The notes below the pieces were generated by a model. That model made no database searches. It worked only from the letters and a program-made list of their open reading frames with translations, and was not told the DNA's origin. DNA of 64,000 bases from Eledone cirrhosa (Eukaryota), in the NCBI GenBank assembly GCA_964016885.1, contig OZ024741.1, forward strand, positions 184,636,001-184,700,000. The letters run 5' to 3'. The translations under genes were made by a program, and so were the position numbers. This document shows, in pieces, positions 545-48,940 of this stretch (positions are counted from its first letter, which is position 1; each line of letters opens with the position of its first letter).

Positions 545-3520
545 ATAGAGACACATACACACATATATAGAAACGCACAGAAACCCATATACAGAAACAT
601 ATACAACGATATACACACGACAAGACACACATACACACACATATATAGAAACGCACAGAAACCCACATACAGAAACATATACAACGATATACACACACAA
701 GACACATACACACATATATAGAAACGCACAGAAACCCACATACAGAAACATATACAACGATATACACACGACAAGACACACATACACACACATATATAGA
801 AACGCACAGAAACCCACATACAGAAACATATACAACGATATACACACACAAGACACATACACACATATATAGAAACGCACAGAAACCCACATACAGAAAC
901 ATATACAACGATATACACACCTCAAGACACATACACACACATATATAGAAACGCACAGAAACCCACATACAGAAACATATACAACGATATACACACACAA
1001 GACACATACACACATATATAGAAACGCACAGAAACCCACATACAGAAACAAATACAACTATATACACACACACAAGACACATACACACACATATATAGAA
1101 ACGCACAGAAACCCACATACAGAAACATATACAACGATATACACACCTCAAGACACATACACACACATATATAGAAACGCACAGAAACCCACATACAGAA
1201 ACATATACAACGATATACACACACAAGACACATACACACATATATAGAAACGCACAGAAACCCACATACAGAAACAAATACAACGATATACACACACACA
1301 AGACACATACACACACATATATAGAAACGCACAGAAACCCACATACAGAAACATATACAACGATATACACACCTCAAGACACATACACACACATATATAG
1401 AAACGCACAGAAACCCAGATACAGAAACAAATACAACCATATACACACACAAGACACATACACACATATATAGAAACGCACAGAAACCCACATACAGAAA
1501 CAAATACAACTATATACACACACACAAGACACATACACACACATATATAGAAACGCACAGAAACCCACATACAGAAACATATACAACGATATACACACCA
1601 CAAGACACATACACACACATATATAGAAACGCACATAAACCCACATACAGAAACATGTACAACGATATACACACACAAGGCACATACACACATATATAGA
1701 AACGCACAGAAACCCACATACAGAAACATATACAACGATATACACACCACAAGGCACATACACACATATATAGAAACGCACAGAAACCCACATACAGAAA
1801 CAAATACAACGATATATACAGCACAAGACACATACACACATATATAGAAACGCACAGAAACCCACATACAGAAACATATACAACGATATACACCACAAGA
1901 CACATACACACATATATAGAAACGCACAGAAACCCACATACAGAAACATATACGACGATATACACCACAAGACACATACACACATATATAGAAACGCACA
2001 GAAACCCACATACAGAAACATATACAACGATATACACACACAAGACACATACACACATATATAGAAACGCACAGAAACCCACATACAGAAACATATACAA
2101 CGATATACACCACAAGACACATACACACACATATATAGAAACGCACAGAAACCCACATACAGAAACAAATACAACGATATACACACACAAGACACATACA
2201 CACACATATATAGAAACGCACAGAAACCCACATACAGAAACAAATACAACGATATACACACACAAGACACACATACACACATATATAGAAACGCACAGAA
2301 ACCCACATACAGAAACAAATACAACGATATACATACCTCAAGACACATACACACACATATATAGAAACGCACAGAAACCCACATACAGAAACAAATACAA
2401 CGATATACACACACAAGACACATACACACACATATATAGAAACGCACAGAAACCCACATACAGAAACAAATACAACGATATACACACCTCAAGACACATA
2501 CACACATATATAGAAACGCACAGAAACCCACATACAGAAACATATACAACGATATACACACCTCAAGACACACATACACACATATATAGAAACGTACAGA
2601 AACCCACATACAGAAACAAATACAACGATATACACACCTCAAGACACATACACACATATATAGAAACGCACAGAAACCCACATACAGAAACATATACAAC
2701 GATATACACACCTCAAGACACACATACACACATATATAGAAACGCACAGAAACCCACATACAGAAAGATGTACAACGATATACACACACAAGACACACAT
2801 ACACACATATATAGAAACGCACAGAAACCCACATACAGAAACAAATACAACGATATACACACCACAAGACACACATATATAGAAACACACAGAAACCCAC
2901 ATACAGAAACATATACAACGATATACACACCACAAGACACACATATATAGAAACACACAGAAACCCACATACAGAAACATATACAACGATATACACACAC
3001 AAGACACACATACACACATATATAGAAACGCACAGAAACCCACATACAGAAACATATACAACGATATACACACCACAAGACACACATATATAGAAACACA
3101 CAGAAACCCACATACAGAAACATATACAACGATATACACACCACAAGACACATACACACACATATATAGAAACGCACAGAAACCCACATACAGAAACAAA
3201 TACAACGATATACACACCACAAGACACATACACACATATATAGAAACGCACAGAAACCCACATACAGAGACATATACAACGATATACACACACAAGACAC
3301 ACATACACACATATATAGAAACACACAGAAACCCACATACAGAAACATATACAACGATATACACCACAAGACACATACACACACATATATAGAAACGCAC
3401 AGAAACCCACATACAGAGACATATACAACGATATACACACGCAAGACACACATACACACATATATAAAAACGCACAGAAACCCACATACAGAAACATATA
3501 CAACGATATACACACCACAA
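545..3520. repeat. Minisatellite, ~73-79 bp unit, roughly 40 copies
   Basis: Unit AGACACATACACACATATATAGAAACGCACAGAAACCCACATACAGAAACATATACAACGATATACACACACA repeated head-to-tail, with CA-dinucleotide indels. Confidence 0.98.
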
Positions 3521-4565: not shown

Positions 4566-4737
4566 AATAATTGTTTCTACTTTAGGCACAAGGCCAGACA
4601 TTACCCAGTGCATTACCGGTACTTAATTTATCGACCCCGTAAGGATGAAAGGCAAAGTTAACCTCGACGGGATTTGAACTCAGATCGTAAAGGGACGTAA
4701 CTGTGCTGCAAAGCATGGCGTCTGACCCTCTACCGAT
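4566..4737 (-). mobile_element. tRNA-derived SINE (octopus-type), near full length
   Basis: Minus strand has B-box GAGTTCAAATCCC, body GGTTAACTTTGCCTTTCATCCTTACGGGGTCGATAAA and a (TTA)n tail; many copies in the window. Confidence 0.9.
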
Positions 4738-5025
4738 AACAATAACAATGGCTATAGCAACTACTGCAACGACAACAACTACTACAACACCAACTATAAA
4801 TATTCCATCAGCAACATCAACCACTACTACAACATTAACAACAGTTACAACTGCAGCCACATGGGCAAAAGAAACTGCTCACTATAAGGACGTCTATTAC
4901 AACAGTCGCTACTTAATTAACAACACAGGTAACTACACACTACTACAACCTAATGGGGTGGCTTCTAACCGGTCATTTCATTAGTTAGTAATAGCAGCCA
5001 GATGTACTTTACCATTAAAAGAAAA

Positions 5026-5146
5026 TAACTTTTTCTATTTTTGGAACAAGGCCAGCAATTATTCAAGTGCATTACTGGTACTTTATTTTATCGACCCCGT
5101 AAGGATGAAAGGCAAAGTTAACTTCGGCAGGATTTGAACTCAGAAC
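5026..5146 (-). mobile_element. tRNA-derived SINE, 5'-truncated copy
   Basis: Same body as 4566-4737. Confidence 0.85.
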
Positions 5147-5275
5147 GACAGCACGTTTGTAGTCTTGAATATATTAATTCAAAACAGGATGTGAGAGCCA
5201 TGGTCAGTCCACTTTGGTTAAAGGTCTATTTGACCATAGACGAGCTAGGTCAAAACAATAGCTACCACAGTAACA

Positions 5276-5318
<43 letters not shown>

Positions 5319-5320
<2 letters not shown>

Positions 5321-8300
5321 TTTCTTTATTGGCCACAAGGGCTGACATCAAGAAAAACATTGCAGACGGCACAGGACGGTACGATGTGGGTTTTGTTCGT
5401 GTAAAGATTTTTATTATTTATATAAGAAAAGAAAAAGAAAAAGACATAGAAACATATATATATATATAAACAATAAAAATGAAATTGAAACAATGAAAAA
5501 TTCCCCAATAGGGAGGAAACCTCCGAGGGTTACTCGTGGCGAAAACCACACAAAAGACCACGGCCACCTTGACCACCAGGGCAAGCGCCCTGTCTCAATT
5601 TTTCCATCTCTCAAACTACAGGCGTATATTCAGAGCGAACCCGTTCACACGGACCATTCTCACAATATTCACCCACCTTTCAACAAACTTGCTATAAAGC
5701 AGCACTTGCATCTCCACCCTTATTTTCCTCTTCAAGTGAAACTTGAAAAAGTTAATTAGGGATTCGCCGAAGAGGAAAATGTCTGTCTTTAACCCTTTCA
5801 AACTTGTCCACCACGCAATCTCTTTAGCCATGGCCACCAGGCAGATGAAAACCGCCTGCCCTTCCTCCTCGAAGGAAGACGGCGAAACCATCTGCACAAT
5901 GGATTCAGTCGATAACCGGATCAGTCCTACACGCGACAGCAACTGTTCGACATAGCACCACAAAGTCAGCGTGCTCGACGAAACCGTCGTGCACGCACTG
6001 AACGAGTGCTCGCAAGACGGTTTCGTCGCTCTGCGCGCATCTCGGACAGGCTCGGCTGACGGCACTTCCGTGCCTGTAGAGCTTATCTCGAACCGGCAAC
6101 GCTCCCCGGTAGCACTGCCAGGCCAGGGATTTTTGGAAGTTATCCATAAGCACTGGGCTGAAAGTTCTCCGGAAGAGAGCAAACACCTGATCTTCTTCGA
6201 CGCCCAGGATCTCTCCGAGAACGTCGTCGCTCTTCCCCTCCACTAGTCCTCTATAGAACGCCGAGGTAGATGTTCCACCGATACTGGTGCCCACCTGGCA
6301 GAGGGCAGAGAGCGCCTGGAGACATTCCAGTTTCCAAGCGCTATCCCTCGGTCTTTTCCTGACCCAGGACTGCAGCTCAGTCAAGGAGACGAGCTGTGGG
6401 AAAACGTGCCTGGCGAACAGCGACCACACCTGTTCATCCTCAAGGAAGCACCACAGATGTCGCAGCCACAGCGCATGTTTGCGCATCATCAGCCATGGAA
6501 TGCCCAGTCCTCCACGCAACGGGTGTTGACAGCAGATGGATCGTCCGACCATGGGAGCGCGTCCCTTCCACAAAAAGTGGAAGAGGAGGCGCTCCCTTTT
6601 GGTGAGAGTTGGGGCGGGGCAAGGGACGACGGTGAGGTGGTAGCAGATGACGGACGCGATGTACGCATTCGCCACCTCCGCCCGGTCATTCAGGGACAGC
6701 TTCCTCTCGGCCCATTTCTGGGTGAGAGAGGCCACCTTGCTCGTCACCTCGCTCCAGTTTATCTCCATCCGGAGGTCCGGTCCGAACCAGAAACCGAGAA
6801 ATTTAACCGGGCCGTCCGCCCAACGCCCTACGATGCTGTCGGACGGCATGGACTTGCCTCTCCAGGTGGCGAGCTGCAGGCCCACCGACGTTTCCTGGTT
6901 TATCTTTGTTCCTGTCATCGCTTCGTATTCCTCGAGAGCCGTGCCGAGCATCTGGACGTGTCTGGTGCTGGACACCATCATGGTGAGGTCGTCGGCGTAA
7001 GCCGACTCGAATTTCCCGCATCCTAGTTCGTGTGGGACGCTCCTCATCGCCCCCAGTTTGTGCAGTAATGGCTCGAAGTCCAATACGTACAAGAGGGACG
7101 AGAGGAGACAACACGAGCGGACCGAGCGCATGATGCTGAACGGCTGCGACAGATGACCGTTCACCCTCAAAACTGAGCAGCTGTCGCTGTACCTCGCAGC
7201 GATCCAACCCCTGAAAACGGGCCCGAAACTGGCTGTCTCGAGGACCGCCGCCAGGTACCGATGGTCAACCCTATCGAATGCTTTGGATTGATCCAAGTTG
7301 ATCAGGGCCCCACCCTTGTCACGTTCCTTAACCACCCTCTCTATGATGTATCGCATGAGGTGGAGGTTGTCGTGGATGGATCTGTCCGGAATGGTGCATG
7401 TCTGAGCTTCACTCACCAGACGCTTGACGACAAGCACCAACCTCGTTGCTAATACCTTGGCAAAAATCTTGAACTCTGCGTTTAGCAGGGTTACGGGCCG
7501 GAAATTATCGATAACATCCCGCTTGTTCGGGTCTTTTCTCAGCAGCGCCACCGCTCCCCGGCTCACAAAACTGGGAATGCTCCCGTTCTGCTGCCAGTTG
7601 CAGTAGACATCTGCCAAGAGGTCACCGAACAAGTCTGGCATAAATGCATAAAGCTCGAAGGGCAGACCATCCAAACCTGGCGATTTACCCCTCGTGCAGT
7701 TAGTCATCGCTTTCCGTATTTCACCGGCTGTTATTGGCTTTTCGCAACACTGTGCTGTGGTCGTCGAGAGCCGAGGCAGTCCGTCGAGGTATGTATTGAA
7801 GTCCATACCCCGATCCGGGCTGCCGCTGCTCCCGAACAGTTCAGCTAAGTGCTTCTGAAAAGCTTCACACATCTCCTCGGGTTCGAGCAACACGCACCCG
7901 CTTTGGTCAGACAAAGACCGAATTGTGGCTTTGTTGCCACGTCGCGCTTCTGCCACCCGGGCTCATTGGACGGCTTTTGTCCCCTCGTGTTTCAGAGCAC
8001 GCGCTCTAGCTCTGACAACGAAGCCTTCGTGTTTTGCGTTGAATAATTGGTCGAGTGCCAATCTCGGCGCAAGCACGTCGGTTGCGATGCCTGTCCTAAA
8101 CGCCTCTTCTAGCTTTCTGACTAGCTCTCCTTCTACTCTATTTTCCTCTATCACTAGTCCTTTGCTAAACCTAATCGACTCTACTTTAATAGCTCTTTTC
8201 AGTGCGAACCACCGCCTGTTGTTGACGACCGCTCCCGTCAACGCCCGCTTAACTAATACGCTAATCTGGTCTCTGTAGGCTTTGTGCGCCGGGAAAGACG

Positions 8301-9340
8301 CGTTCAGCTTCCAGTAACCGGGCCCTTGTCTATGAAGTCTGTGTATGTCGATCTCACAGATCACAAATTTGTGGTCTGTGTAGTCGACTATTTTATATTG
8401 TGGACAACTTATACTAGCCTTATATAGTTCTCTGCAGAGTACCCTATCGAGATACGATCTGGATGACCCGATGCGGTTTGTCCATGTCCACATTGGCACA
8501 TTCGAGTGATCCAGTCTATACCTGTCAGACAGCTCAAAATGTCTGAGCAGGTTGGTGAGGCTCTTTCACCCTCCTCCCTATCCACTAGCCCCACACAATC
8601 CCAGCGTGCATCCAAGACACCGTTCCAGTCGCCCACTAACACTAAAGAGAGGAACGTTCCAAGAAAGTTCTCTAGACGTCTGAAGAAATCTGGCCGTCCT
8701 GCCCCTGGTGGGGCGTAGACGGCTACTAGCCTGAAAGAATTGCTTTCGCTGCCGGTCACGTCCAGCACAACCGACTTACTTTCTGGGTCTAGGAAGATGG
8801 GCCGTATGGCGAGATCCAAGCCTTTCCGAAAAAGCACCCCCACCCCCCGATCCTGGACGGTTGAGAGATGCGTATATATCGTAGACACCCCGAAGATCGG
8901 TGCGAAGACTCGTCCTTCGGAGATTCTGGTATCGCTGATGGCCACCAGATCTATGTTTAGTGACCTGAGGTCGTTGAGCAGGTGACCCTGCTTCCAAGAA
9001 TACCCCAGGCCACGCGCATTTATACTGCCTATTCTGAGTACGGCCATGTTGGATGAGAAACAGGGCAAGTGAGAAAGGGTCACTTACCTTGATCGTGTGA
9101 TGAAGAGACAGTAGAACCGTCCCTTTGGCTGGTCATGGGTGTTTCCAAGAGAATGCCAGTGTATATCCTCTTTGTAACCGACCCTCTGAAGTCTCCAACT
9201 GCGTTGGGTAATTTTTGTTTTAAAAGTTTGTACTGTTCTATTTTGATATCAATGATGCTTATGTTTGTCGGAGAGTCCTTGGTGTTGGTGGGGTGTAGTA
9301 GTTTTTTTCTGTGATGTCTGTGTGCTGCTTTATATATTGT
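5319..9340 (-). mobile_element. Tx1/L1-clade non-LTR retrotransposon copy 1, 5'-truncated within ORF1, inserted in (TAA)n
   Basis: APE-RT-zinc ORF2; 3' end CCTTGTGGCCAATAAAGAAATC followed by (ATT)n; (AAT)4 at the 5' junction. Confidence 0.93.
5616..9047 (-). pseudogene. Tx1 ORF2 (AP endonuclease + reverse transcriptase + C-terminal zinc motif), frameshifted
   Basis: GSINARGL, VYAP, GDWNG, SYLDR, TDHK, GPGYWKLN; KSPGLDGLP, NFRPVTLL, DQSKAFDRV, AYADD; CPRC..ETV. Split across ORFs 8409-9083, 7963-8499, 5905-7956 and 5616-6182. Confidence 0.95.
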
Positions 9341-9353
9341 AATAATAATAATT

Positions 9354-10561
9354 AGGAGAGTTAGGAGCGTATTAAAATCACATCTGAACAGTAGGAATGC
9401 CATAAGTGCAGTAAATTCCCGAGCTGTGTCTATTATTATGTACAGTGCGGGAATTCTGAGATGGAATGTTGCTGAACAAAAAGAAATGGATAGGAAGACT
9501 AGGAAGCTATTGACTAACTACAATATGTTCCACAAAAGGAGTGATGTCGATAGACTCTACTTAAGGAGATCTGAAGGTGGAAGAGGTCTTATCAGCATAG
9601 AGGACTCTGTTCTGATGGAGAAAAACAACCTGCACAAATACGTGACTGATAGTAGGGAGCCAATGCTCAGAATTGTACTGAAGGAGAGGACAATAGACCA
9701 GGGGATGTCCAAGGAGGAAATAACAACAAGGAGAAAGAGCAACCTTCATGAAAAATCCCTTCATAGTGCATTCTTTGAGAAAACTGAATTAAGAGATCCA
9801 CAGACATGGAACTGGTTGAGGAGACCTTAAAAAGGCTACAGAAGGAATGCTAATGGCTGCGCAAGAGCAGGCTCACAAAATAAAGTGGCTGAAACACCAT
9901 ATTTACAAGGAGGAGGCTAGCCCACTGTGTAGGATCTGTGGAGAGAGAGAGAGGAAACTGTGGCTCACATTGTATCCAAGTGTAAATACCTAGCCCAGAC
10001 TCACTATAAAGGCTGGAGACATGATGTGATGGGAAGGGTGATCCACTGGCACCTATGAAAAGTAAACAATTTGCCGCATTCTGAGAAGTGGTATGAGCAT
10101 AAGCCAGAGTCGGTGATGGAAAACGATCAGGTGAAGTGCTGTGGCATTTTAGGATACAGACGGACAAGAAACTCGAACACAATAGACCTGACCTGTTGGT
10201 TTTGGACAAGAAAAAAATATCGCGCATTATTGTGGATGTGGCCTGCCCATTCGACACGAGAGTGCAAGAGAAGGAGAGGGAGAAAATTAACCGATACCAG
10301 GACTTATGGGAGGTAAAAAGGATTTGGAACTGCCATGAAGTCAAAGTGGTCGCGATTGTCATAGGCGCACTAGGTACTATCTCAAAGAGTTTCCAGGAAT
10401 GGTTAAAGAAAATTGGCCCCGCCCCGCTTTTTGGAACACTTCTGAAGGCATGCTTGCTGGGAACAGCAAGAACCCCTGAAAATCTGAGGCTGCAGGTAGT
10501 GGCTTGGTATTCATTTCAACAAACTTTCCAGTTAACTAACATGAATGACTGAGACTCAAAG
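9354..10561 (+). mobile_element. R4/Dong-clade non-LTR retrotransposon (RLE endonuclease) copy 1, 5'-truncated, frameshifted
   Basis: RT C-terminus DRKTRKLL..SDVDRLY..RSEGGRGL, CRICG..ET..H zinc knuckle, RPD..DVACP..EK..RY nuclease motif, (AAT)n tail. Confidence 0.92.
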
Positions 10562-10839
10562 AACAATAACAATAATAATAATAATAATGATAATAATGCT
10601 TTCTTTATTAACCAAAAGGGTTTAACACAAAGTAGACATTAAGGACGATACAGGACGGTACAAATGGGCATTTCTGCGTGTAAAAAAACAAAAAACAGAG
10701 GATGTAATAATAGAACAATGAAAAAAATTCCCCAATAGGGGGGAGACTTCCGAGGGTCATTTGTGGAGAAAGCCCATTAAAAGGCCACAGTGACCCTTAC
10801 ACCAGGGCAAGTGCCCTCTCCCAGTTTTCCATCTTTAAT

Positions 10840-13800
10840 TTACAGACACATACTCAGAGTAGGCCCATTCACTCGGGCCATTCTAGTCTCTCTCACCCAT
10901 CTTTCAACAAAATGCTGGGAAGAGAGCACTTCCCTCTCTACCCTGATTTTACTTTTCAAATGAAATTTGAAAATATAATCAGGGCATCACCGAAGAGGTA
11001 AGTGCTCGTCTTCAGCCCTTTCAAACGTGTCCACCATACTATCTCTTTCGCCATGGCCACCAGACAGATAAAAACTGCCTGCCCTTCCCGGTTAAAGGAA
11101 GAGGGCGTGGCAATCCTCACGATGGTCTCAGCTGATAGCCGGATCCGTCCTACACGCGACAGCAGGTGTTCGACATAAACCCACAAGTCAGCCATGCTCG
11201 GACACTGGACGAGTGCGTGCAGGACGGTTTCGTCGCCCTGCGCGCATCGTGACATGCCCAGCTGGCGGCACCTCCATGCCTGTAGAGTTTATCCCGAACT
11301 GTAAAGCTCCTCGGTAGCACTGCCAGGCCGGGGATTTCTGGAAATTTTTCATAGGCCCCGGCCTGAAAGTTCTTCCGAAGAGATTGGCTAGTTGATTTTC
11401 GTCGACGTCGAGAGTTTCCCCAAGTACGTCGTCGCTCTTCCTCTCCACTAATCCTCTATAGAACGCCGAGGTGGAGTTTCCACCGATCACATTGCCGGAT
11501 TGGTCGAGGGCTGTGAGCGGCTGAAGACATTCCAGTCTCCAAGCTCTCGCTCTCGGTCTTCGCTTGACCCAGGACGGCAGCGCCATCAAGGAGACGAGCT
11601 GGGGAAAGACGCTTCTAGCAAACGGCGACCACACCTGATCACTGTCGAGGAAGAGGTGAAGATGACGTAGCCTGAGCGCGTGTCTGCGCATCATCAGCCA
11701 CGGAAAGCCCAGCCTTCCATGTAGCGGGTGTTGACAGCAGATGGACCGCCTGACCATCGGAGCGCGTCCCTTCCACAAAAAGCGAAAGAGCAAACGCCTC
11801 TGCGCAGTCAGGCGAGGCTTAGGACACGGTACGACGGTCAGGCGGTAGTAGATGACGGACGCGATGTACGCGTTAGCCACCTCCGCTCGACCTTTCAGGG
11901 TGACAGAAGTCACCCTGCTCGTCACTTCGTCCCAGTTTTTGTCCGTCTGGATGTCCGGACCGAACCAGACCTCTAGCAATTTAAACGGTCCGTCCGTCCA
12001 GCGTCCGTCCGAGCTGCAGGCACACTGACTATTCCTGGTTGAAAATTGCTCCTGTCACCGTTTCGTATTCTCTTAGTGTCGTGCCGATGGCCTCGATGTG
12101 TTTGGCGTTCGACATTACTACGGTGATATCGTCCGCATATGCTGACACGGATCTTCCGCCTCCTAGTGCGCGCGGGAATCCCCTCAACGTCTCCAGTTTG
12201 TGCAGTAATGGCTCGAGAGTCAATACGTACAAGAGGGACGAGAGGGAACATCCTTAGCGGACCGAGCACATGATGTTGAACGGTTCCGAAAGGTGACTGT
12301 TCACTCTTACCACAGAGCAGATGTCGCTGTGCATGGCAGCGATCCAGCCTCTGAAGACGGGCCAAAAGCCAGCCGCCTTCAGGACTGCCGCTGAGTAACG
12401 ATGGTCGACCCTATCGAAAGCTTTCAACTGATCTAAATTGATCAAGGACCCAACCGTGCCAATTTCCCTAGCTACCCTCTCTACGATGTATCGCATGAGG
12501 TGGAGGTTGTCGTGGATGGATCTGTCGGGAATGGGGCATGTCTGCGCCTCTCCCACCAGACCACCAACGACAATCGCCAAACTCTTTTCTAGCACCTTGG
12601 ACAAAATCTTGAACTCTGTGTTTAGCAGAGTTATGGGCCTGAAATTATCTATGTTATCCCCCTTCTTCGGATCTTTTCTCAGCAGCGCCACCACTCCTCG
12701 CCTCACAGAGCTGGGAATTCTCCCGTTCTGTTGTCAGTTGCAGTAGACGTCCGCCAAGAGGCCTCCAAACAAGTCTGGCATATGTACGTATAGTTCATAT
12801 GGCAGACCATCCAAACCAGGCGATTTACCCCTTGTGCAGCCAGACATTGCCTCCCGCATTTCAGCGGCTGTTATCTGATTTTCGCAACACTCCGCCTTAG
12901 TGGCCGAGAGCTGCGGCAGTCCGTCGAGGTAGACACTAAAGTCCATGCCTCGACCCGGTCCGCCGCTGCCCCCGAACAGCTGTGCGAAGTGTCGCTGAAA
13001 AGTTTCACACATTTTCCCGGGATCGAGTAAAATGAGCCCGTCGCGGTCCACCAAAGACCGGATCGTGGCTTTGTTGCTACGACGCGCCTCCGCCACTCGG
13101 ACCCATTGAATGGCTTTCGTCCCCTCGTGTATGAGAGCACGCACCCTAGCTCTGACAACGCAGCATCCGTGCTTTGCATTGAAGAATTTGTCAAGGGCCA
13201 ATTTCGCCGCAAGTACGTCGGTTGCGATGCCTTTGCTAAGCACTTCGTCTAATTTTCTAATTAGTTCTCTCTCTGCTCTATTTTTCTCTACAGCTAAAGC
13301 CTTACTAAACATAATGGACTCTATTCTAATCGCTCTTTTCAGAGCATACCACCACTTGTTGTTGACGATGACGCCGTCAAGGACCGCTTAACTAGTTTGC
13401 TAAACTGGTCTCTGTAGACCTTGCGCGCTCGTAAGGACGCGTTTAGCTTCCAGTAGCCGGGTCCTCGTCTATGAAGCCTATCTAAGTCTAGCACACAGAT
13501 CACGAATTCGTGGTCCGTGTAGCTGACTATCTTGAATTGTGGACAGCCTATGCTAGACCTATCTATTTCCCCACAATACTCTATCTAGATATGATCTGGA
13601 TGACACGATGCCGTTTGTCCAAGTCCACATTGGCGGATTCGGGAAATCCAAACGGTAGGTGTCAGACAGTTCAAAACGCCTGAGCAGGTTGGTGAGACTC
13701 TTGCACCCTCCTCCCCTATCCGCTAATCCCACACAGTCGCAGCGTGCATCTAAGATCCCGTTCCAGTCGCCCACTAACACTAAAGAGCGGGACGTTCCTA

Positions 13801-14187
13801 GAAAGTCTCCAGACGCCGGAAGAAATCAGGCCGCCCTGCTCCTGTCGGGGCATAGACGGCCACTAGCCTGAAAGCTTGCCCGTCTCCGCTGGTCACGTCC
13901 AGCACCACCAACTTACCTTCTGGCTCCAGGAAGATGGCCCGTATGGCGAGATCCAAACCTCTCCGAAAAAGCACAGCAACTCCTCCCCCCAATCCCGGAC
14001 GGCTGGGAGATGCGTACACATCGTAGCCGCCGAAGATCGGTGCGAAGGCCCGTGCTTCGGAGATTCTGGTCTCGCTGATAGCCACTACATCTATGTTTAG
14101 TGACCTGAGGTCGTTGAGCAGGTGGCCCTGCTTCCATGACGACCCCAAGCCACGCGCATTTATGCTGCCTATTCTGAGTTAGGTCAT
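10840..14187 (-). pseudogene. Tx1 copy 2 ORF2 (APE + RT + zinc motif), multiple stops and frameshifts
   Basis: Collinear with copy 1 ORF2: AISETR, VYAP, GDWNG, KSPGLDGLP, KAFDRV, AYADD, ETVLHALVQC. Confidence 0.95.
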
Positions 14188-14221
14188 GTTGAAATGGAGT
14201 GGGAAAGATGGGAAAGACCAC

Positions 14222-16089
14222 TTACCTTACTTCTCGTAGAGGAAGGATGGTTTCTCCAACCCTTTTCACTTGATCGTCTGGTGAAGGGACCGTTGAATCG
14301 TCCCTTCGGCTGGTCGTCGGCTGTTCTGAGAGTATATCCGAATATACTCTCCGGTTGAGTGTCCCTCCTAGGTCTCTGAAATCACCAACTGCGTTGGGGA
14401 ATTTCGTTTTAATGTTTGTGTATTGTTTCTGTGCTATTCTTACCAGCCTTATGTTTGTTGGTGTTTTTATTGGTGCTGGTATTATGTAGTCGTGCTGTGA
14501 AATATCTGTGTGTTCAATTAAGTAAGTCATTAGTTTCTTGTTGTGTGTATTTATTGCTGTTCATTTGTTTTTCTGGGGGTGGGGGGTGGTTCTGCTATTT
14601 TCTTGTCGTTGTTGCTTGGTGTGTTTTTTGTTGTTGTGTTTGCGATGCTGGTGCTTGTGGTGGTGGTGATGGTGTTGTTGTTGTTTGTGGTGGGGTTGTG
14701 CTGGTGGTGATGGTGGTGCTAGTGTGGGTAGTGATGGTGTTGGTGGTGTTGCTGCTTTAAGTCTCTTTGCAGTAGCACTTACCTTTTTTCATTTCTTCCT
14801 TCCCTTTTCGAAGGCGACGATGCGCTGCTTCTGCGTTTGAGCCTTATTGCGACCTTTTGAAATCCCTCTCCCACCTCACACTCCATGTCCGATTCTGTGT
14901 CGTCGGGGAGGGGTACCAGCTCCACTCGTTCACTTGTTGTTGTTGGTGATGTTTGCAGTGTAGTCTCTGTTGCAGCTGCCGTTGGTATTACTGTTGTTGT
15001 TGTTAATACTTCCACTGCTGCTGCTATTCTTGATTTCCGTGGCGTGGGTATGGGTTCCACGGACCTATCCTTCCTGGTTGCCGCCTGTCCTGTTGCTGGT
15101 AGCATTGGAGCCGGTTTCGGAAGGAGGGGGGGTCTCCTTTCTCTGGGTCTTCTCATTGCAGAAGGCCCTGAGGTGAGTCTTCGATCCAGAGCGAAAGCAT
15201 TTCGGGATTTTGCCCTCAACATTTATGGGCAGTTGAGTGCCGTTATCGAAGTCTATCACATCCGGAATAGCTTCGATGCACTCCTGGTTGGTTTGGATTA
15301 ACATCTCAATGGAGGTGCCGGCCCAATCTTCTCGTACTTTTTTCTGTACTTGCAGTACAGTTGTTTTGTCCTCGATTCCGACGAGGACAGACGCGGCCAG
15401 CCAAAAAGGGGCCTTCCTGGGGGGGAAGGAGTCAGTTTGACCCTCACAATTTTTTGCCCGCAGTAGGAGGGCACCAACACCATTTCCTCGCCACTTAGGG
15501 TTACTAAGGATTAAGCCTTTGCCTACTAGGGTGTGGCAGAAAGCACGTCCACGGTGGCATATTTCTTGCCTCGGGTGATATGCGTTTTCTGCTGCCACAC
15601 AGACCCTAAGGCTTCTTGTATTTGAGCCTCGGTGGCTCTTTCAACTCTACGGGATTTTGTGCTTACTGTACGGTACGTGACCGTACAGTGCTGTTGAGTT
15701 TCGAAAATATTTTCGGCTGCCTTGCAAACTGCTCGCTGTCCGGTTTTCGTCACCATCTTTTTTGCTTCCTGTAATTCCTCATTTGTTATAAGGATGGTTT
15801 CCAGGTTCTTTGCGATACCTGCAAACGAGATTGGTTTTTCTTTCTTGTTGTTGTTGTTGTTGTTGTCGTCAGCGCTGCTGTTACTTTTGTTGTTATTTGT
15901 TGTTACTACGACGGCCGCCGCCGCTGTTGCTGTGGTTGTTGTTGTTGTTGTTGCTGCTGCTGCTGTTGTTGTTGCTGTTTCTGCTGTTGCTGTTGTTGTT
16001 TATGCTGCTGCTGATGTTGTTGCGGCTGCTACTAGTGTTTTCCTTGATACTGTTGCTGCTGCTGCTGCTCTTATTACGTCTGACGTCAT
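14222..16089 (-). pseudogene. Tx1 copy 2 ORF1 (gag-like), frameshifted
   Basis: ATG at 16089 is in frame with ORF 15526-15756; Ala/Thr-rich N-terminus, PISFAGIAK, degenerate zinc knuckle CFRSGSKTHLRAFC, low-complexity linker; C-terminal block shared with copy 1 (PNAVGDFR). Confidence 0.75.
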
Positions 16090-16605
16090 GAAGAATACTT
16101 CATGACGTCAGACGAATGAAATGGCTTTCCGTATTTACCGCACACATTTTTCGTCGTTGTCGTCGTCGTGGAGAAATGTTCCACGGAATGCACGCTCTCT
16201 TGGTGAAATCTATCAGAAACTATATTTTCTTTTTCTTTAATAGCGTCGCTTGCGAAAGAGAAGAGAGGGAGAGAGACACATTTAGAGAAGGGAGGGAGAG
16301 AGACAATCTTCTCTCTGATGTAGGGACGATTGAGGAAGAAGAAAACGGAATGAGTGGGAGTGACTTGTGAAAATTTTTGTTTGTAGCCATGTTTTTTTTT
16401 TGTTTCAAATGAATATTGGGCACACAACCCCAATAAGTGGTTATTTAACCCCGAAGGGCCAAATAACGGGCTGAAAGACCCCTCTCACGAGGAGGAGGGT
16501 GTTTTTATCTACAATTTGATTAAAGTTTTAAACAAATTACAATTGTTATAGCGGTTAAAATTTACTATACCTTACAGAGACGAGCCTCCGTCAACCATAA
16601 CATTC

Positions 16606-16656
<51 letters not shown>

Positions 16657-16657
<1 letters not shown>

Positions 16658-17657
16658 GAAGAGGTCTTATCAGCATAGAGGACTGTGTTCGGATGGAGAA
16701 AAACAACCTATACAAATACGTGACCTATAGTAAGGAGCCAATGCTCAGAGCTGTACTGAAGGAGGGGACAGTAGGCCAGGGGATACCCAAGGAGGAAATA
16801 ACATCAAGGAGGAAGAGCAGCCTTAAGGGAAAATCCCTTCATAGTACCTTCTTTGAGAAAACTGAATTTAGAGATCCACAGACATGGAACTGGTTGAGAA
16901 GAGGAGACCTCAAAAAGGCTACAGAAGGAATGCTAATGGCTGCGCAGGAGCAGGCCCTCAAAACGAAGTGGTTGAAGCACCATATCTACAAGGAGGAGGC
17001 TAGCCCACTGTGCAGGATCTGTGGAGAGAGAGAGGAGACTGTGGCTCACATTGTGTCCGAGTGTAAACACCTAGCCCAGACCCACTATAAGGGCTGGAGA
17101 CACGATGTGATGGGCAGGGTGATCCACTGGCACCTGTGCAAAGTAAACAATCTACCACATTCTGAGAAATGGTATGAGCATAGGCCAGAGGCGGTGATGG
17201 AGAACAATCAGGTGAAGGTGCTGTGGGATTTTAGGATACAGACGGACAAAAAACTGGAACACAATAGACCTGACCTGGTGGTTGTGGACAAAGAAAAAAG
17301 ATCGTGCCTGATTGTGGATGTGGCCTGCCCGTTCGACACGAGAGTGCAAGAGAAGGAGAGGGAGAAAATTAACCGATACCAGGACCTAAAGTGGGAGGTG
17401 AAAAGGATTTGGAACTGCCATGAAGTCAAAGTGATCCCGATTGTCATAGGCGCACTGGGGACTATCTCCAAAGGTTTCCAGGGATGGTTAAAGAAAATCG
17501 GCCCCTTCACGCTTTTTGGAACGCTTCAAAAGGCATGCTTGCTTGGAACGGCAAGAACCCTCCGATACGTCCTGAATATCTGAGGCTGCAGGTAGTGGCT
17601 TGATATTCAATCCAACGGACTTTCCAGTTAACCAACATCAATGACTGAGATTCAAGG
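16657..17657 (+). mobile_element. R4/Dong-clade retrotransposon copy 2, 5'-truncated, C-terminal frame intact (ORF 16693-17583)
   Basis: CRICGEREETVAHIVSEC, RHD, RPDLVVVD, DVACP, EKINRY, PIVIGALG; (AAT)n on both sides. Confidence 0.94.
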
Positions 17658-17669
17658 AATAACAATAAC

Positions 17670-17738
<69 letters not shown>

Positions 17739-17937
17739 AACAGCAGCAACAACAACAACAACAATAAAAACGGCGAATGAGGGAGTTACATACAAAATAA
17801 AAACATCAATTGATAAATTAATTAATAAAACATAGACAAAAGATATTGAAAAATAAAATTTTGCTATCATAGGGGAAAAGACATTCAAGCTGGAACAACA
17901 CCAACAACATTTAGAAGGTTAAATAAAAAAAAATTAA

Positions 17938-18282
17938 AATAATGGTTTTATATATAGGCCCAAGGCCAGCAATTTTGGGGGAGGGTAAAGTCGATTAAAT
18001 CGACACACATAAAGGGCCGTAACTCTATGCTGCAAAGCATGATGTCCGACCATCTACCGATACTGCATATCTACCGCCCTATAAAAATAATTGTTTCTAC
18101 TTTTGGTACAAGGCCAACAATTATACCAGTGTATTACTGGTACTTTATTTTATCGACCCCATAAGGTTGAAAGGCAAAGTTAACCTTGGCGGGATTTGAA
18201 CTCAGACCGTAAAGGGCCATAACTCTTTGCTGCAAAGCATGGCGTCCAACCCTCTACCGATACTGCCAAATTCACCGCCCTA
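17938..18282 (-). mobile_element. Two tandem tRNA-derived SINE copies (first internally deleted)
   Basis: SINE tail and head motifs at 17938-18080 and 18086-18282. Confidence 0.85.
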
Positions 18283-18429
18283 TAACAATAATAAAGGACA
18301 AATTGACAGAGCAAAAACAAAAGGAGAACAATGAAAGAAGAGATCAGAGTAAGGAAGGTGAGAGAAAATGAAGAAGAAGTGATAGCTACAACAATAACAC
18401 AAACAACAAATACTTAGAAAGAAGTTGAA

Positions 18430-18560
18430 GGTAATGATGATAATGTTGATGAGCACAATGATGGCGGAATTGGTTGTGGTGGTGGTGATAACTATGGTGA
18501 TGATGGTGATTGTGATGATGATGATGATGATGATGATGATGAGGATGATGATGATGGTGG

Positions 18561-18607
<47 letters not shown>

Positions 18608-18712
18608 GTGGTGGTGAAGATGATGATGATGATGATGATGATGATGTCGATGAAGAAGAAGAAGAAGAAGAAGAAGAAGAAGAAGAAGAAGAAGAAGAAG
18701 AAGAAGAAGAAG
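18430..18712. repeat. (GAT)n followed by (GAA)n microsatellite
   Basis: Direct reading. Confidence 0.95.
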
Positions 18713-18781
18713 GCGACATCTTCAAGAGTAACACGAAGAAAAGGTAGAACAAGAATACAAATAATTGCGCATAGCAGTGAC

Positions 18782-18958
18782 AATAATAATTGTTTCTACT
18801 TTAGGCACAAGGCCAGCAATTAACCAGTGCATTACTGGTACTTTATTTTATCGACCCTGAAAGGCAAAGTTAACCTCGGCGGGATTTGAACTCAGAATGG
18901 AAAGGGCCGTAACTCTATGCTGCAAAGCATGGCGTCAGACCCTCTACCGATACTGCCA
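18782..18958 (-). mobile_element. tRNA-derived SINE
   Basis: Same family consensus, with a small internal deletion. Confidence 0.9.
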
Positions 18959-19094
18959 AGACAATAATAATGTCCTGAAGACTGACAATGCCAACGATAA
19001 CAACACCAACTCCAACAATAGCAACAACAGTTCAGTATAACAACACCTTGAAACCTAAAAAGAAAATGGAAACAAATATCCATCCACAAACACA

Positions 19095-19143
19095 CATACA
19101 TAATATATAAATATATATAGATGTATGTATGTATATATGTATG

Positions 19144-19205
<62 letters not shown>

Positions 19206-19316
19206 TTATATATGTATATATATATATATAGATGTATGTATGTATATATATATATATATATGATTTATATATGTATATATATATATATATAGATGTATGT
19301 ATGTATATATATGATT

Positions 19317-19363
<47 letters not shown>

Positions 19364-19483
19364 AAATATATATATGTATGTATATATATATATATAATAT
19401 AAATGTATATATATATATGTATGTATATATGTATATATATATATATAATATAAATGTATATATATATATATATATACATATAT

Positions 19484-19545
<62 letters not shown>

Positions 19546-19637
19546 ATATATATATATAAATATATATATATATAAATATATATATGTATCTATCTATGTA
19601 TCTATCTATTTATCTATCTATCTATCTCTCTCTCTCC

Positions 19638-19692
<55 letters not shown>
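19095..19692. repeat. (TA)n-dominated compound microsatellite
   Basis: Direct reading. Confidence 0.95.
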
Positions 19693-19696
<4 letters not shown>

Positions 19697-20261
19697 GAAA
19701 AACACTAACAAAGCAATTACAACAAAAAACAAAGACATTACAGAGAAGGGGAATAATAATAACACTAATAATAATAACACTAATAATGATAATAATAATA
19801 ATAATAATAATATTGATGATGATGATGATGATGATAGTAAACAATAAGAATAATGACAATATTAATGAAAATAATGTTGAAGAACCTGCGAACTTAACAC
19901 GTGTACGTTGAGTAAACGTCCTAGGCGTTACATGTGATCAAACGAAACGAAAATAACAAAACATAATCGCCGTGATGTTTTTTTCTATAAACAAGAAATC
20001 CTACCCCCAACAAAAAATAAAACAATGTAAAATAAAATGATATAACTAACGTAATGTAAAAAAAAAAAATCGAGAAAAAAATATATAAAGGAACAGGATA
20101 AAGGGGACATGAGCTGGGGAGGGTGGCAAAATGGAAGGACGATGAAAGAACAATAACAGGACAGGGACATATATAGGAAGGAAGGAGGTAGAGGAGAGGC
20201 ATCAATATATTTCAAATAAAATAGCATAATTAATTCAATCCACTACGAGAGAATGAATAAC

Positions 20262-20645
20262 GTACATACATACAAACAAAAAATATATGCATATACATAC
20301 ATACATAGACAAACATATATATATACAAACTACATAAATATATACTTACATACAAAAAAATATGTGCAAATACATAGACAAACATATATATACAAAGTAC
20401 ATAAATATATACTTACATACAAAAAATATGTGCTTATATATATATAGACTAACATATATATATACATACTTTACATAAATATATATATACAAAATATATA
20501 TGCATATACATAGACAAACATATATATACATATTTTACATAAATATATACATACAAAAAATATATGTATTTACGTTCATACGAAAAATATATGCATATAC
20601 ATACATACATAGACAAAAATATATGCATATACATACATATGCATA
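20262..20645. repeat. Degenerate AT-rich minisatellite (~60-75 bp unit)
   Basis: Recurrent CATAGACAAACATATATAT...TACATAAATATATA. Confidence 0.75.
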
Positions 20646-23600
20646 TATGCATTCGTACAGCCCTACAGACCACATGCATATATAGATGCATGCACACATA
20701 CATACATACATGCATGCATACATGCATGCATACATACATACACGTCGAGATCTAAATAGTATAGAATAGAATTTACAACAAGCTAGCACGCAATAGCAAT
20801 ATTGATATACATTATAAATATGGTTATCTTTATAATACGATTTATCTTATTATAATGGAAATATAATGATATTACAATATAATATAATATATTACAAATT
20901 ACATAATATTATAATATAATATTGCAAATACATATATGTCATTAAAGCGTTGTGTTGAAATAATATATAATTTATATATAATTCATCTACACATCTTCGC
21001 TAAAACGGTTCACAAACAGGCCTCTCTAAGTCTGAAGTGCCTCATATATATATGCACACACACACACACACGCGCACACGCACGCACACACACACACACA
21101 CGCACACACGCACACGCACACACATATATAAAGATAAAGAAATGGAAAAAAAGACAAGAAGAAAGTAACAGGATGTCTTACTTTCTCCTAGACATTTTTC
21201 CTTTTTTTTTCTTTTTTCTTTTTACCTTTTTCTTCGGTCTCGTGAGATTCTCGTTGCTATAAAAATCACAACACATTCTCCCAGTCGTCACATAAAATTA
21301 TATGTATACATGTTCTGGATTAATTGCTATAAGTTATTGTTTTGCTTATCTTTTACTCCACAGACAGCGTTTTAGCTAGTTTGTCAGACGTTGTGACCTC
21401 AGATCGACCGGCAGTAACGTTGATGCTCAGCTACTTACACGGTAATTTTCTTAGGAGGTTGTTCCGTTGATCAAACAAATGGAACATTCTATGTTGAAAC
21501 TGACGGAGGTCCATCCATCTCAATCAAGAAACATAAATAAGATACCAATTATTTGTTGATTTGTACAAATTTCCAGATACTCCTTCCTTGATTTTGTAAC
21601 AAAATATGAGCAAACATTCTTTAACGCCAAGAAAACTACGGAGACATTAGCAAAACAAATCCTCCGACTTATAAAGATAATTATTGTATTTCTAAAGAAA
21701 AGTCGAAAGTCCTAATTCTATAAGTTATTTTATTTTAAAACTGTAAATCTATAATGAAAATGCAACATAAGTGCCATATGAAACATGTTATAGCATAACT
21801 CTAGGTAAAAGTTTTGTTTGATGCAGATTGTGTCGAAAACCTTGAAACTGCATTTCTTACTGTACTGCTTCAAAGCAAATTCACCATACTGTCGATGACA
21901 TTAAAATGCACCCTATTTCACGATTACATGAATACAATGCTTACGAATTGCAGTTGTTAAACTGGTGGTTTAACTTGCTTTTATTAGATGTGACTTTAAG
22001 AAAACAATTTTACTGGGTTTGCTTTTAAGCGAAAGTTTAGAAGTTCATAGCACAGAAAATGATATAATTAATTGCATTGATAATTTTAGGAAAAATTACA
22101 ATATAACCTATGATAAATATATTGCATTTTGCAGTGATGAAGCAAAGAGAATAATCGGTTAAATTGTGTGACGCTGTAAAGGAAATCAAGAATATTGCTT
22201 GAAACTGTAACAGTAATCCTTACTTTCTTCATAGGTATCCTTAAATAGCAAAACATTTCAGTTATATTAAAACTGGGTTTAGTCAATGTACCTATGTCAT
22301 TGAAAGCCATTGAAATTATATGAAAATAATTGAGCAGTATCTAATGAAAACAAAACACAAAGAGAACAGAAAAGGAAAAAATGATAAAAAAAAGGATTCA
22401 GCAACAAAAAGAAAAATAGAAGGGGAGGGACAGACACCACGCCCAGTATGAACAGTACCTCAGTCGGCCCTGCGGACAAAAATCGTTACCGTGGAGAAGG
22501 GTCAGCAACACCGATGCAACCCCACGTCACGGGGCTCCCTCCTCAATCGGTGAGAGGTCTCTCCGATTTTACAGAGAAAATCAGCTGATCAGGGACCAAG
22601 GACGCCATTATGTGCTGATTGTACATTCTATCAAATCGCAGCCAGCCTTATGTCAAGACATATTTTTCCACACACGATTTATATGGCTATAGTGAGGTAA
22701 TATTGGGTCATACATTTTGATAATCCGACAGATTAAAAGATACGACATGCCTTTCAAGAAATAGCTACTCAGTCAATATTTTTGCAAAATTAAATAAATC
22801 ATGTTTATCTTCGCAAACTCAAATATAACAAAATACATATTCACAAACAAAATACATCTTTTGTAAAATCGTATTAGGTTTTCATGACAGAATAAGTTTG
22901 CTGTGCAGATTGGGTTGTCTCGTCTATATTATTGAGTGACAGTTGTATATAGTTTGAATAATATAGTTTTAATTATATCAGAAAAACACAGAAAAACACC
23001 CCACAAAAGTCATGAGCATTATGGCAGGATCCCCTTTAATCATAGATTTCTACTTGGTGTCCATAAAATAAAGTACCAGTCAATTACAATGGACGATTTA
23101 ATATTCCTATAAAGAATCATAGATGTGAAAAGAAATAAAATAGGAGATTAAAGCTTTCAGGGCTGACCTGGGAAAATAGCAATAACAATAACATTGTTTT
23201 CCGGGACAAGGGATAATTTTCCCTCGATTATTTTCCCTTCCCCACTTTTTCTTTACAAGTTTGTGGTCTTGTGCCGATAGGAGGATTGCTTAATGTGGTC
23301 GGTCGATCGGTTAATTTTAAGCAGACACATACACAGTAAATAATTATTCTTCAAATTGCCTCTTAATCAGAAGCTTTTGCAGTTCAGCCAAACAAAATAT
23401 ATATAAACAAGTCAAACAAACATAAAGCATGTCTACTGCTTTCTTTATTTAGCTCACTTGCCAAACAAGCTGTAGTTCGTTTATATATACATTAATATAT
23501 GTATGTCCGGGGGGGGGGGGGGGCGTGTTTCCAATGACAATAAACGTCATGATTTTTTAATAGTGATAATAATAAGAGTGGTACATGAGAAGCCAGATCA

Positions 23601-24159
23601 TGTATTATCCCAATAGATGAATTGCTGATGCAGGCAAAATTAATGAGCTTCATCAATAAGTGAATAAATAGATAACCAAATATAAATAAATATTCACATA
23701 AATAAATGAAATAAATAGATAGATAAAAAAGCAAATAAACAAAAGAGAAATAATTGAAAAAATAAACAGAGTGGGGTGAAAAAAAAAACAAGAAAGAAAC
23801 TATGTGAAAAATAGATGAAACGAAAGACGGCAATATGGAAGAAAACAAAGAAGGAAGGGGATAAAGAATGGAAAAGTGACTGTAGGAAAGAAAGAAAAAA
23901 AAAGTAAAAAAAGAAGAATATGAAGGATATTTTTGTAATGATTATTCTTTCAATCCACACCCTAGCCATTCGTCTATTCCATTATTCCTAACCACTTCAT
24001 ATAATGATACTGATAATTCTATCTTCATTAAACTATAACACTTAATTAGTCTTCGAGGCCTTCACTGACTACATCTTATATATTTACGACTTTCTCAAGG
24101 CAATTGTTTTGTGGAATCGTTAGAGCTTAAACATTTTGATCTGGCTCCTTATATTAATA

Positions 24160-24530
24160 ACTTCTCGTCCCACCGGAGTCAGTGTTGCCATTGGTATTTT
24201 CGGAGTTGATAAAATAATGTATCATCCCAGTATTGGAGTCGATGTATTTGACTTTCCTCTTTACACAAATTGTTGGCCTTGTGCCTAAATAAGAAATCAA
24301 CATTTGTGTCTTTATTAAAACAGTGAATTAATGGAACTGTTTAATTATCTGACAAAGTGCCTTGTGGTGTTTATTATAAGCTCTTTAGATTTTAACTCCA
24401 AATCCAGCCGAGTTCAACGTCGGCTTTTATCAGCAATAAAATAAAGTACCAGTTAAATACTGTGGCCGATTTAATTGACTACACTAACAGTCCCCTCACC
24501 AAAATAACTGCTCACTATTTTCCGGAATTC
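24160..24530 (+). mobile_element. Two old diverged SINE copies related to the main SINE family
   Basis: GATAAAATAA..CCAGT..TGGAGTCGATGTA..TTGGCCTTGTGCCTAAA and AAATAAAGTACCAGTTAAATACTG motifs. Confidence 0.6.
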
Positions 24531-24832
24531 GAAAATATTATTTACTAATTTTTTATATTATGCATTATACCGTTTCTTTCTTTCTTTTGCTTTTCTTCCA
24601 TACATTCATTCATTCTTTCTTTCTTTCAATGTTTCCTTCCTTTCTGACTTTCTTTTTATCTTTTATTTCATTCTTTGTTTTTTTCCTTACTTTTCGCTTT
24701 TCTTTGTGTTTCTTTCTGTTCTTCTTTTCTTCCTTGTTTATTCGTTAGATTCTTTTCTTCGTGCATATGTATGACGTCTCTCTCTCTCTCTCTCTCCAAC
24801 TTATGTGCCACCCTTTCCACAGACAATTAAAT

Positions 24833-24915
<83 letters not shown>

Positions 24916-25130
24916 CAATCAAGCTCTCGTCAGTCTATTTTCACAAACAATGTGCTAATTATGTCCTTTTTATCATTCATTTGTCAACACAACACCACAC
25001 CAAAACCCACCGCCACCGATACGACCACCACAGCCACCCATAACTAGACAGGCTCCCCCTAGTTTGGTAAACGCATTCTCAAAACAATTCATCATATTCA
25101 TCAGCTTCATCATTATAATCCTCATGGCAT

Positions 25131-47045: not shown

Positions 47046-47545
47046 CTTCTTGTATAATATTTTCTGTATTCACCTCGCTCTTAATATCTCATCTTTTATA
47101 GAAAATAATCGGCACGGTTTTGTCTTTCAATTGTCTTCACTGCTCATGTAAAAGTAAAGTCGGATGCGTTTTCGACAGACCTCGTATATATAAATGCGTG
47201 TAGTCTTAGTAGCTTAACACCAAACAAACCAGGTTATATACCATCATGATCAGCCTTCGGACTTTATACATACACACATACGTCCGTACGTATGTACGTA
47301 CATACATACATGATAGCAGGTTATATACCATCATGATCAGCCTTCGGACTTTATACATACACACATACGTACATACGTATGTACGTAGATACATACAAAC
47401 ATACGTACATACGTATGTACGTAGATACATACACACATACGTACATACGTATGTACGTAGATACATACATACATACATGATGGCTGCCCCCTCGTTATCG
47501 AGTATGGCTATTGCACGAAAAAAAGATAATAATAATAATAATAAT

Positions 47546-47750
47546 GCTTTCTTTAATACCCACAAGGGTTTACACAAAGTAGACATTAAGGACAGTACAG
47601 GACAATACAGGACGGTACAACTGGTCCATCCGTCCAGCGCCCGACGACGCCGTTGGACGGCATGGACCTGCCTCACCAGGTGCCAAGCTGCAAGCCCACC
47701 GACTTTTCCTGGTTGATCATTGCTCCTGTCACCGCTTCGTATTCTCTTAG
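47546..47750 (-). mobile_element. Tx1 copy 3: 3' tip fused to an internal RT fragment
   Basis: 47546-47620 matches the 3' end of copy 2; 47621-47750 matches the RT region of copies 1 and 2 (~6810-6930; ~11985-12077). Confidence 0.88.

Positions 47751-48896: not shown

Positions 48897-48897
<1 letters not shown>
47751..48897 (+). mobile_element. R4/Dong-clade retrotransposon copy 3, 5'-truncated
   Basis: ORFs 47760-48350 and 48347-48823 closely match copies 1 and 2; (AAT)n tail. Confidence 0.93.

Positions 48898-48940
<43 letters not shown>

Follow-up and report, generated by a model that had tools for sequence, protein, structure and literature searches.

Background

In Bombyx, the retrotransposons TRAS1 and SART1 share one telomeric repeat, (TTAGG)n, as target; they enter it in opposite directions and form mixed arrays (PMC7265360, PMC10088271; these and the other published accounts used here were available in part). 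Keno, a member of the Tx1 clade with an apurinic/apyrimidinic endonuclease (APE), and Utopia, with a restriction-like endonuclease (RLE), share one site in U2 snRNA genes (PMC4640811). Simple repeats are also the targets of Dong, DongAg and DongBg of the R4 clade, which insert into (TAA)n (PMC3812793, PMC3774820), and of Tx1 families – Kibi in (TC)n, Koshi in (TTC)n, crocodilian families in (TTCC)n/(TTTC)n, and a telomere-specific family of the anole (PMC4494074, PMC10088271). Coleoids have both Dong-R4 and L1-Tx1 elements in abundance, with recent activity of both in Octopus vulgaris, in which Dong-R4 is an abundant class; the available parts of these accounts give no target data (PMC8967140, PMC13282606). 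Here we describe a window of 64 kb of the Eledone cirrhosa genome (contig OZ024741.1, positions 184,636,001–184,700,000; "the window" below means this whole stretch), in which a Tx1-like long interspersed nuclear element (LINE), abbreviated T, and an R4/Dong-like element, abbreviated D, lie together in one (TAA)n microsatellite. The array is very probably a stack of four retrotransposon copies in that microsatellite, likely made by separate, independent insertions and likely ordered by chance.

Organization of the array

The source assembly has 3.0 Gb in 1796 contigs, and the window lies on the contig called C2 here. Re-reading of 5277–17710 confirmed the order and strands given in a preliminary description of the window: (AAT)14 – T1(-) – (TAA)4 – D1(+) – tract – T2(-) – (AAT)17 – D2(+) – (AAT)n (Table 1). 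That description also held that the array is not a simple tandem duplication, and this is upheld: T1 and T2 are 78% identical, D1, D2 and the D copy at a third site (D3) are mutually 87–89% identical (D1 and D2 89%), and the 5' ends differ, so that tandem duplication is ruled out. The copies were further said to be diverged and truncated at different points. The divergence is clear, but T2 is not truncated; at 6008 bp it is full-length, because copies at other loci stop at the same terminal base, 6008, and then run into AAT. The (TAA)4 at 9340 was considered as element sequence and rejected; other T and D copies carry non-TAA sequence at that point.

Three head-to-head pairs out of three had been counted in the window. 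T1–D1 and T2–D2 are such pairs, while the third (47546–48896) consists of an internally deleted T remnant of 206 bp that overlaps D3 by one base, with no TAA between them.

Table 1. Coordinates of the array and of the third site within the window
Feature	Position	Strand	Remarks
(AAT)14 tract, tail of T1 and target	5277–5318	+	
T1, Tx1-like LINE, 5'-truncated upstream of open reading frame (ORF) 2, decayed; reverse transcriptase (RT) frame 5908–7962	5319–9339	-	RVT_1 E 6.5e-20, zf-RVT, 78% to T2
(TAA)4 target remnant, boundary of T1 head and D1 head	9340–9351	+	belongs to neither family's own sequence
D1, R4/Dong-like RLE element, last ~1.2 kb of ~4.9-kb unit, older type	9352–10560	+	nearest sampled sibling 95.7%
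AAC/AAT/GAT tract containing the D1 and T2 tails, tail to tail	10565–10597	+	
T2, full-length Tx1-like LINE, 6008 bp: ORF1 region, APE, RT; frameshifted	10598–16605	-	
(AAT)17 target tract, boundary of T2 head and D2 head	16606–16656	+	
D2, R4/Dong-like, 3' 1.0 kb, young subfamily; open CCHC/RLE frame 16552–17580, zf-RVT	16657–17657	+	
D2 tail (AAC/AAT), then (AAG)10; tail to 17708	17658–17740	+	
Third site: (AAT)6 tail and T remnant (79-bp 3' end joined to 133 bp of RT region)	47526–47751	-	
Third site: D3 fused directly to T remnant, (AAT)14 tail	47751–48939	+	

Shared target and fixed polarity

Whole-genome counts were made with exact patterns, and junction frequencies come from samples. 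There are 2606 T 3' ends of one type, 8344 D 3' ends with a tail, and 83,318 ends of perfect (AAT)6+ runs (44,308 + 18,251 + 20,759) in the genome. In one Tx1-like subfamily, (AAT)3 directly abuts 2387 of the 2584 full-length 5' ends (T3 type) genome-wide; by hand count in sampled loci, AAT adjoins every full-length D head (18 of 18) and 85 of the 96 D heads overall. Both families have TAA at both ends, and their polarity is fixed and opposite, T with an (ATT)n tail on one strand of the tract and D with a (TAA)n tail on the other. Only 2 of 59 T loci (L038 and L079) have an inverted neighbor of any R4-type family (R, which takes in D, a second R4 family, E, and rarer ones). The shared (TAA)n target, the complementary tails and the opposite polarity read from the window are thus supported. 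Since the polarity of each family is fixed, unlike neighbors are opposed without any pairing rule. At 2387 of 2584 ends, T shows target preference in the sense used for Tx1 elements, more than 20% of flanks of one kind (PMC4494074, available part). At L079 (5743–8500) an inverted D segment is joined to the head of a truncated T copy, arranged as twin priming would leave it.

Neighbors of T and D copies

All neighbor samples were taken in coordinate order from another contig, C1 (the first 95 Mb; the first 15 Mb for the sample of tracts). The first T sample was the first 60 sites with a T 3' pattern, of which 59 are real (L052, a false match, was dropped); the D sample was 96–97 D 3' ends from the first 100 listed. 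The second T sample was the first 90 sites with a T 5' pattern, some of them in common with the first, and the same code scored it and the D set. Three duplicated locus pairs (L043/L045, L040/L044 and L129/L131) were kept. Neighbors were called with a library of natural copies, so some of the rows given as "none" may be unrecognized elements.

The type of neighbor is independent of an element's own family. In the hand-curated first samples, the tail side of the 59 T copies has T in 15 cases, R in 14, a short interspersed nuclear element (SINE) in 13, and none or an inverted element in 17; their head side has R 23, T 6, SINE 15, none 13 and inverted 2. The head side of 96 D copies has T 31, R 36, SINE 4 and none 25, and their tail side T 26, R 36, SINE 11, with the remainder other or none. 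R is therefore as frequent beyond T heads (23/59) as beyond D tails (36/96, p 0.87). Beyond the 90 T heads of the second sample there were R 30, T 32, SINE 6, other 5 and none 17; beyond 97 D tails scored by the same code, R 35, T 26, SINE 11, other 9 and none 16. T heads and D tails do not differ by Fisher's test (p 0.76 for R, 0.21 for T, 0.37 for R vs T), and in these samples adjacency and order are at the frequencies of independent targeting, contrary to the excess that had been proposed. Nor is head-to-head pairing a rule: the counts against tail-to-tail are 31 v 26 when centered on D and 23 v 14 when centered on T, with no excess (pooled p 0.18).

Longer chains show the same mixture. When the chains from 123 merged stretches were pooled, the adjacent pairs were RR 66, TR 57, RT 50 and TT 26, R–R being the commonest. 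Thirty-four runs of four elements contain nothing other than T and R copies; among them are RRRR 6, TRTR 3, TTTT 1 and RTRT 0. From the sampled rates, a TRTR order is obtained for about 3% of T copies. Weighting of 80 sampled tracts gives rough totals of 10,000–16,000 copies for T and about 22,000 for R, so a few hundred TRTR arrays like the present one would be expected genome-wide.

Ages of copies and supply of tracts

Age was taken as identity to the nearest sampled sibling, which is not a dated divergence. These identities are 95.2% for T1, 95.7% for D1, 95.6% for T2, 99.9% for D2 and 95.0% for D3; for the T2 3' end, the best of 40 scored siblings in the genome (from 2949 candidates) is 94%. 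D2 was inserted long after T2, because it is at 99.9% and T2 at 95.6%. Between head-to-head partners there is no correlation of age (rho 0.03; 37 of 44 pairs were scored, including three that entered from both sides), with D younger by more than 2 points in 20 pairs and T younger in 3. The comparison of partner ages that the preliminary description called for thus goes against coordinated insertion for head-to-head partners, D2 and T2 among them; tail-to-tail partners, taken up below, behave otherwise. No empty-site joint at 4740–18400 was among the joints listed for contigs of four public runs, the listed ones being jumps to a SINE or a paralogue.

Stacking is the usual state: by second-sample scoring, another element lies across the tract from 73 of the 90 T heads and from 81 of the 97 D tails, which bears out the idea that such arrays keep offering target, and about half of the sampled (AAT)6+ tracts touch a retroelement. 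An urn model without preference, begun with 17,000–25,000 tracts, gives neighbor frequencies of 0.36–0.43 for R and 0.21–0.25 for T, near those observed.

Several observations weigh against independent insertion. The ages of tail-to-tail partners correlate (rho 0.46, p 0.014 uncorrected, 28 of 34 pairs). The urn model gives too few neighbors (0.27) when begun with the ~48,000 tracts that the tract counts imply. In the first sample T was rarer beyond T heads (6/59) than beyond D tails (26/96, p 0.014), and the pooled chains contain a slight excess of unlike pairs (107/199, p 0.10). The tail-to-tail correlation may reflect new insertions favoring fresh tails. Because the urn model falls short at ~48,000 tracts and fits at 17,000–25,000, only a subset of tracts would serve as target, probably the long ones. 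The apparent T–T deficit was rejected, as the second sample, chosen by the 5' end, gave 32/90; the likely source of the deficit is the 3' pattern, which detects some subfamilies and misses others.

Alternatives to independent insertion

Fusions such as the one at 47751 could be explained by coupled insertion in trans, in which a Tx1-like and a Dong-like particle start cDNA synthesis on the two strands of a single break and the resulting cDNAs are joined by their heads. By hand count, T and R heads are joined without TAA in 7 of 31 head-to-head pairs centered on D and 7 of 23 centered on T, and the third pair of the window adds another; some fused partners are within 1 point of each other in age, and the polarities permit such an event. 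These fusions were rejected as proof of coupling, since unpartnered heads lose the tract equally often: D heads lack it in 7 of 31 partnered and 4 of 25 unpartnered cases (p 0.74), and truncated T heads in 7 of 13 partnered and 6 of 7 unpartnered cases (p 0.33). Internal deletions are also common in the sampled T and D copies, other fused partners are up to 5 points apart in age, and target was kept between T1 and D1 and between T2 and D2. Deletion of target at insertion, or a later deletion, is enough to account for direct fusions, and coupling is an improbable explanation of the array. It is equally doubtful that some fusions (about one-quarter of the T–R4 head pairs, that at 47751 included) are single events in which APE and RLE elements primed from opposite strands of one TAA break and their cDNAs were joined, which would be twin priming in trans between unrelated clades.

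Reciprocal targeting, in which each family prefers the tract beside the other, would produce the strict alternation that the preliminary description proposed. The T–D–T–D order of the window fits it, as do the 6/59 v 26/96 of the first sample and the 107 unlike pairs in 199. T nevertheless lies beyond 32 of 90 T heads and R beyond 35 of 97 D tails, and TRTR makes up only 3 of the 34 four-element runs, against RRRR 6, TTTT 1 and RTRT 0. As a strict rule this explanation is refuted, and in any form it is less probable than coupling. A composite T–D unit moved or duplicated whole (by 3' read-through transduction or segmental duplication) has a parallel in the few sampled loci that are mutual duplicates (the three locus pairs listed above) and is the least credible explanation, excluded for this array by T1 v T2 at 78%, D1 v D2 at 89%, unlike 5' ends, the distance in age between D2 and T2, and junctions that vary among sampled pairs.

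Independent insertion into one target can be put in terms of established target-primed reverse transcription. The T APE would nick the (AAT)n strand, where the (AUU)n tail of its RNA would pair with the nicked end, and the D RLE would nick the (TTA)n strand. Because T and D would nick opposite strands, two unlike neighbors would always have either their heads or their tails toward each other. An insertion would split the tract and add a tail, leaving target on both flanks for any TAA-seeking element, and a preference for long, fresh tracts would then build stacks. D2 was the last insertion in the array, well after T2.

Identity of the Tx1-like family

The T ORF2 begins with an APE. In T2, Pfam matches are Exo_endo_phos (PF03372, E 1.6e-6) at 13801–14178 and RVT_1 at 12257–12733; the counterpart of this APE in T1, the frame 8412–9083, has no Pfam match, yet can be aligned to T2. 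The nearest solved protein to the T RT is L1 ORF2p (E 3e-41, vs 6e-19 for R2), and a zf-RVT is found at the C-terminus. The best longer homologues are APE+RT proteins of ~1300 amino acids with 31–33% identity, those with names being from fish; one of them, Tetraodon BAC82605.1, we take to be a Kibi/Koshi-type deposit, which a lookup did not confirm. In the Tx1 clade a separate upstream ORF1 carries a CCHC knuckle, and the ORF1 frame of T has one of the form CX2CX4HX4C (in L049, a natural full-length copy). These features agree with the earlier identification as an APE-type Tx1. In a quick RT tree of 52 rows, with no named Tx1 reference, T forms its own long branch and falls in no starred group; from its sequence T would work like Tx1, while its clade membership is not settled by the tree, and we call it Tx1-like.

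T subfamilies (T2 compared with L049 1510–7315 and L092) are 73–89% identical in ORF2, and their ORF1 and 5' regions can barely be aligned, like the 5' exchange of L1-type elements. The 5' region of T2 contains a near-perfect palindrome of 38 bp (16077–16114). At two of the duplicated loci, L043 (~4540) and L045 (~4525), 1.2 Mb apart, the T copy is cut and runs on as TTAGGG repeats, which suggests telomerase-healed breakage.

Identity of the Dong-like family and of a second R4 family

L034, a natural full-length D copy of 4.9 kb, has a frame of 1137 codons with one stop that encodes, in order, RT, CCHC and a PD..D..K restriction-like endonuclease. This single ORF, with (TAA)n at both ends of the element, supports the earlier identification as an RLE-type R4/Dong. 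The nearest solved proteins are those of R2, and there was no R4 or Dong name among the 120 D homologues listed; the assignment as R4/Dong-like rests on architecture, target and an N-terminal likeness. A 5' ribozyme like that of hepatitis delta virus (HDV) has been shown in Bombyx Dong (PMC3774820). No relevant Rfam match was found in six loci with full-length D heads, a search that divergent ribozymes would escape.

The second family, E, has ~41% amino acid identity to D, and the bodies of the two have no blastn match. The first 330 bp of their heads are homologous, with 71–92% identity in 48 pairings of 13 D and 4 E heads (E copies L102, L095 and L144; D copies L032, L047, L103, L117 and others). 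This common 5' untranslated region (UTR) is likely a 5' module swapped between stack neighbors. The D protein (L034 4720–6636) has unnamed public homologues at 66–70%, vs the ~41% to its genome-mate E. In a public run from another organism, X1, whose contigs show presence and not absence, the summed depth is of order 1e5 in T bins and about 1e2–5e2 in D bins, so that T may be abundant where the D family is lacking, though this is no more than a hint. Together with the outside homologues at 66–70%, the small depth of D in that run hints that D is a recent arrival.

Other residents of the tracts and rest of the window

In addition to T and D, the stacks hold E, rarer R4-like families, a SINE and three other tailed elements, so that the residents of these tracts include at least two R4 families, several Tx1-like subfamilies, the SINE and others. 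The SINE is abundant (4569–4740 of the window, minus strand, and many loci); it closes with a sequence like the 3' end of T and an (ATT)n tail, it has T polarity in tracts, and it is a frequent neighbor of T. T may be its partner LINE. The three other elements, X, Y and Z (L142, L122 and L091, beyond D tails, and tract loci L171–L250), adjoin AAT tracts with T polarity; the 3' end of X presumably resembles that of CR1, and that of Z the 3' end of Penelope.

Elsewhere in the window there is a minisatellite at 549–3520, with periods of 149/226 bp and AC-rich units, and another decayed LINE at 49545–51488 (minus strand), with pieces of RT and C-terminal C2H2 fingers and no tie to a TAA tract.

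Significance

The array is real and is an ordinary product of independent co-targeting, in which alternation is not a rule. Since it is not a rule, alternation itself carries no weight. What is left has some limited value for specialists in transposons: a Tx1-like lineage specific for (TAA)n would extend the known range of Tx1 targets and, with D, would supply an APE/RLE pair working on the two strands of a single trinucleotide repeat, a simple system in which to compare strand choice in vitro. The about 83,000 perfect (AAT)6+ runs make up a large shared "safe haven". These stacks also bear on the growth of microsatellites and of transposable-element stacks, and on stacks mis-annotated as composite elements.

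Comparison with known systems

T is like the Kibi/Koshi-type Tx1 families, as far as these are described in the available sources, in its specificity for a simple repeat, its ORF2 with APE, RT and zinc motif, and its CCHC-bearing ORF1. It differs from them in having (TAA)n as target, in being only 32–33% identical to the nearest fish proteins, and in its long, separate branch. No TAA-specific Tx1 was found in the literature searched, which covered parts of the sources and did not extend to Repbase Reports, most subscription papers, or the figure and supplements of PMC4494074, which may hold more targets. The (TAA)n-specific Tx1-like lineage may be what is new here.

D is like Dong, so far as the available accounts of it go, in its single ORF with RT, CCHC and RLE and in having TAA on both sides. 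Unlike in Dong, at least two abundant families (D and E, ~41% identical in amino acids) share the target and a 5' UTR. Rfam, which would miss divergent ribozymes, gave no ribozyme match for D.

Keno and Utopia likewise are a Tx1-clade APE element and an RLE element that evolved the same target in parallel. They insert into a gene and have identical 3' flanks, hence the same orientation, and the available part of the account does not describe mixed stacks (PMC4640811). A parallel in layout is TRAS and SART – two site-specific LINE families, one simple repeat, opposite directions and mixed arrays. According to the available parts of the sources, both of these belong to the R1 clade, carry an APE, end in poly(A) tails (shown for SART1) and are found at telomeres only. 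In the Eledone genome, by comparison, the pair consists of an APE and an RLE element, the tails match the repeat, and the sites, tens of thousands of them, are interstitial (TAA)n tracts.

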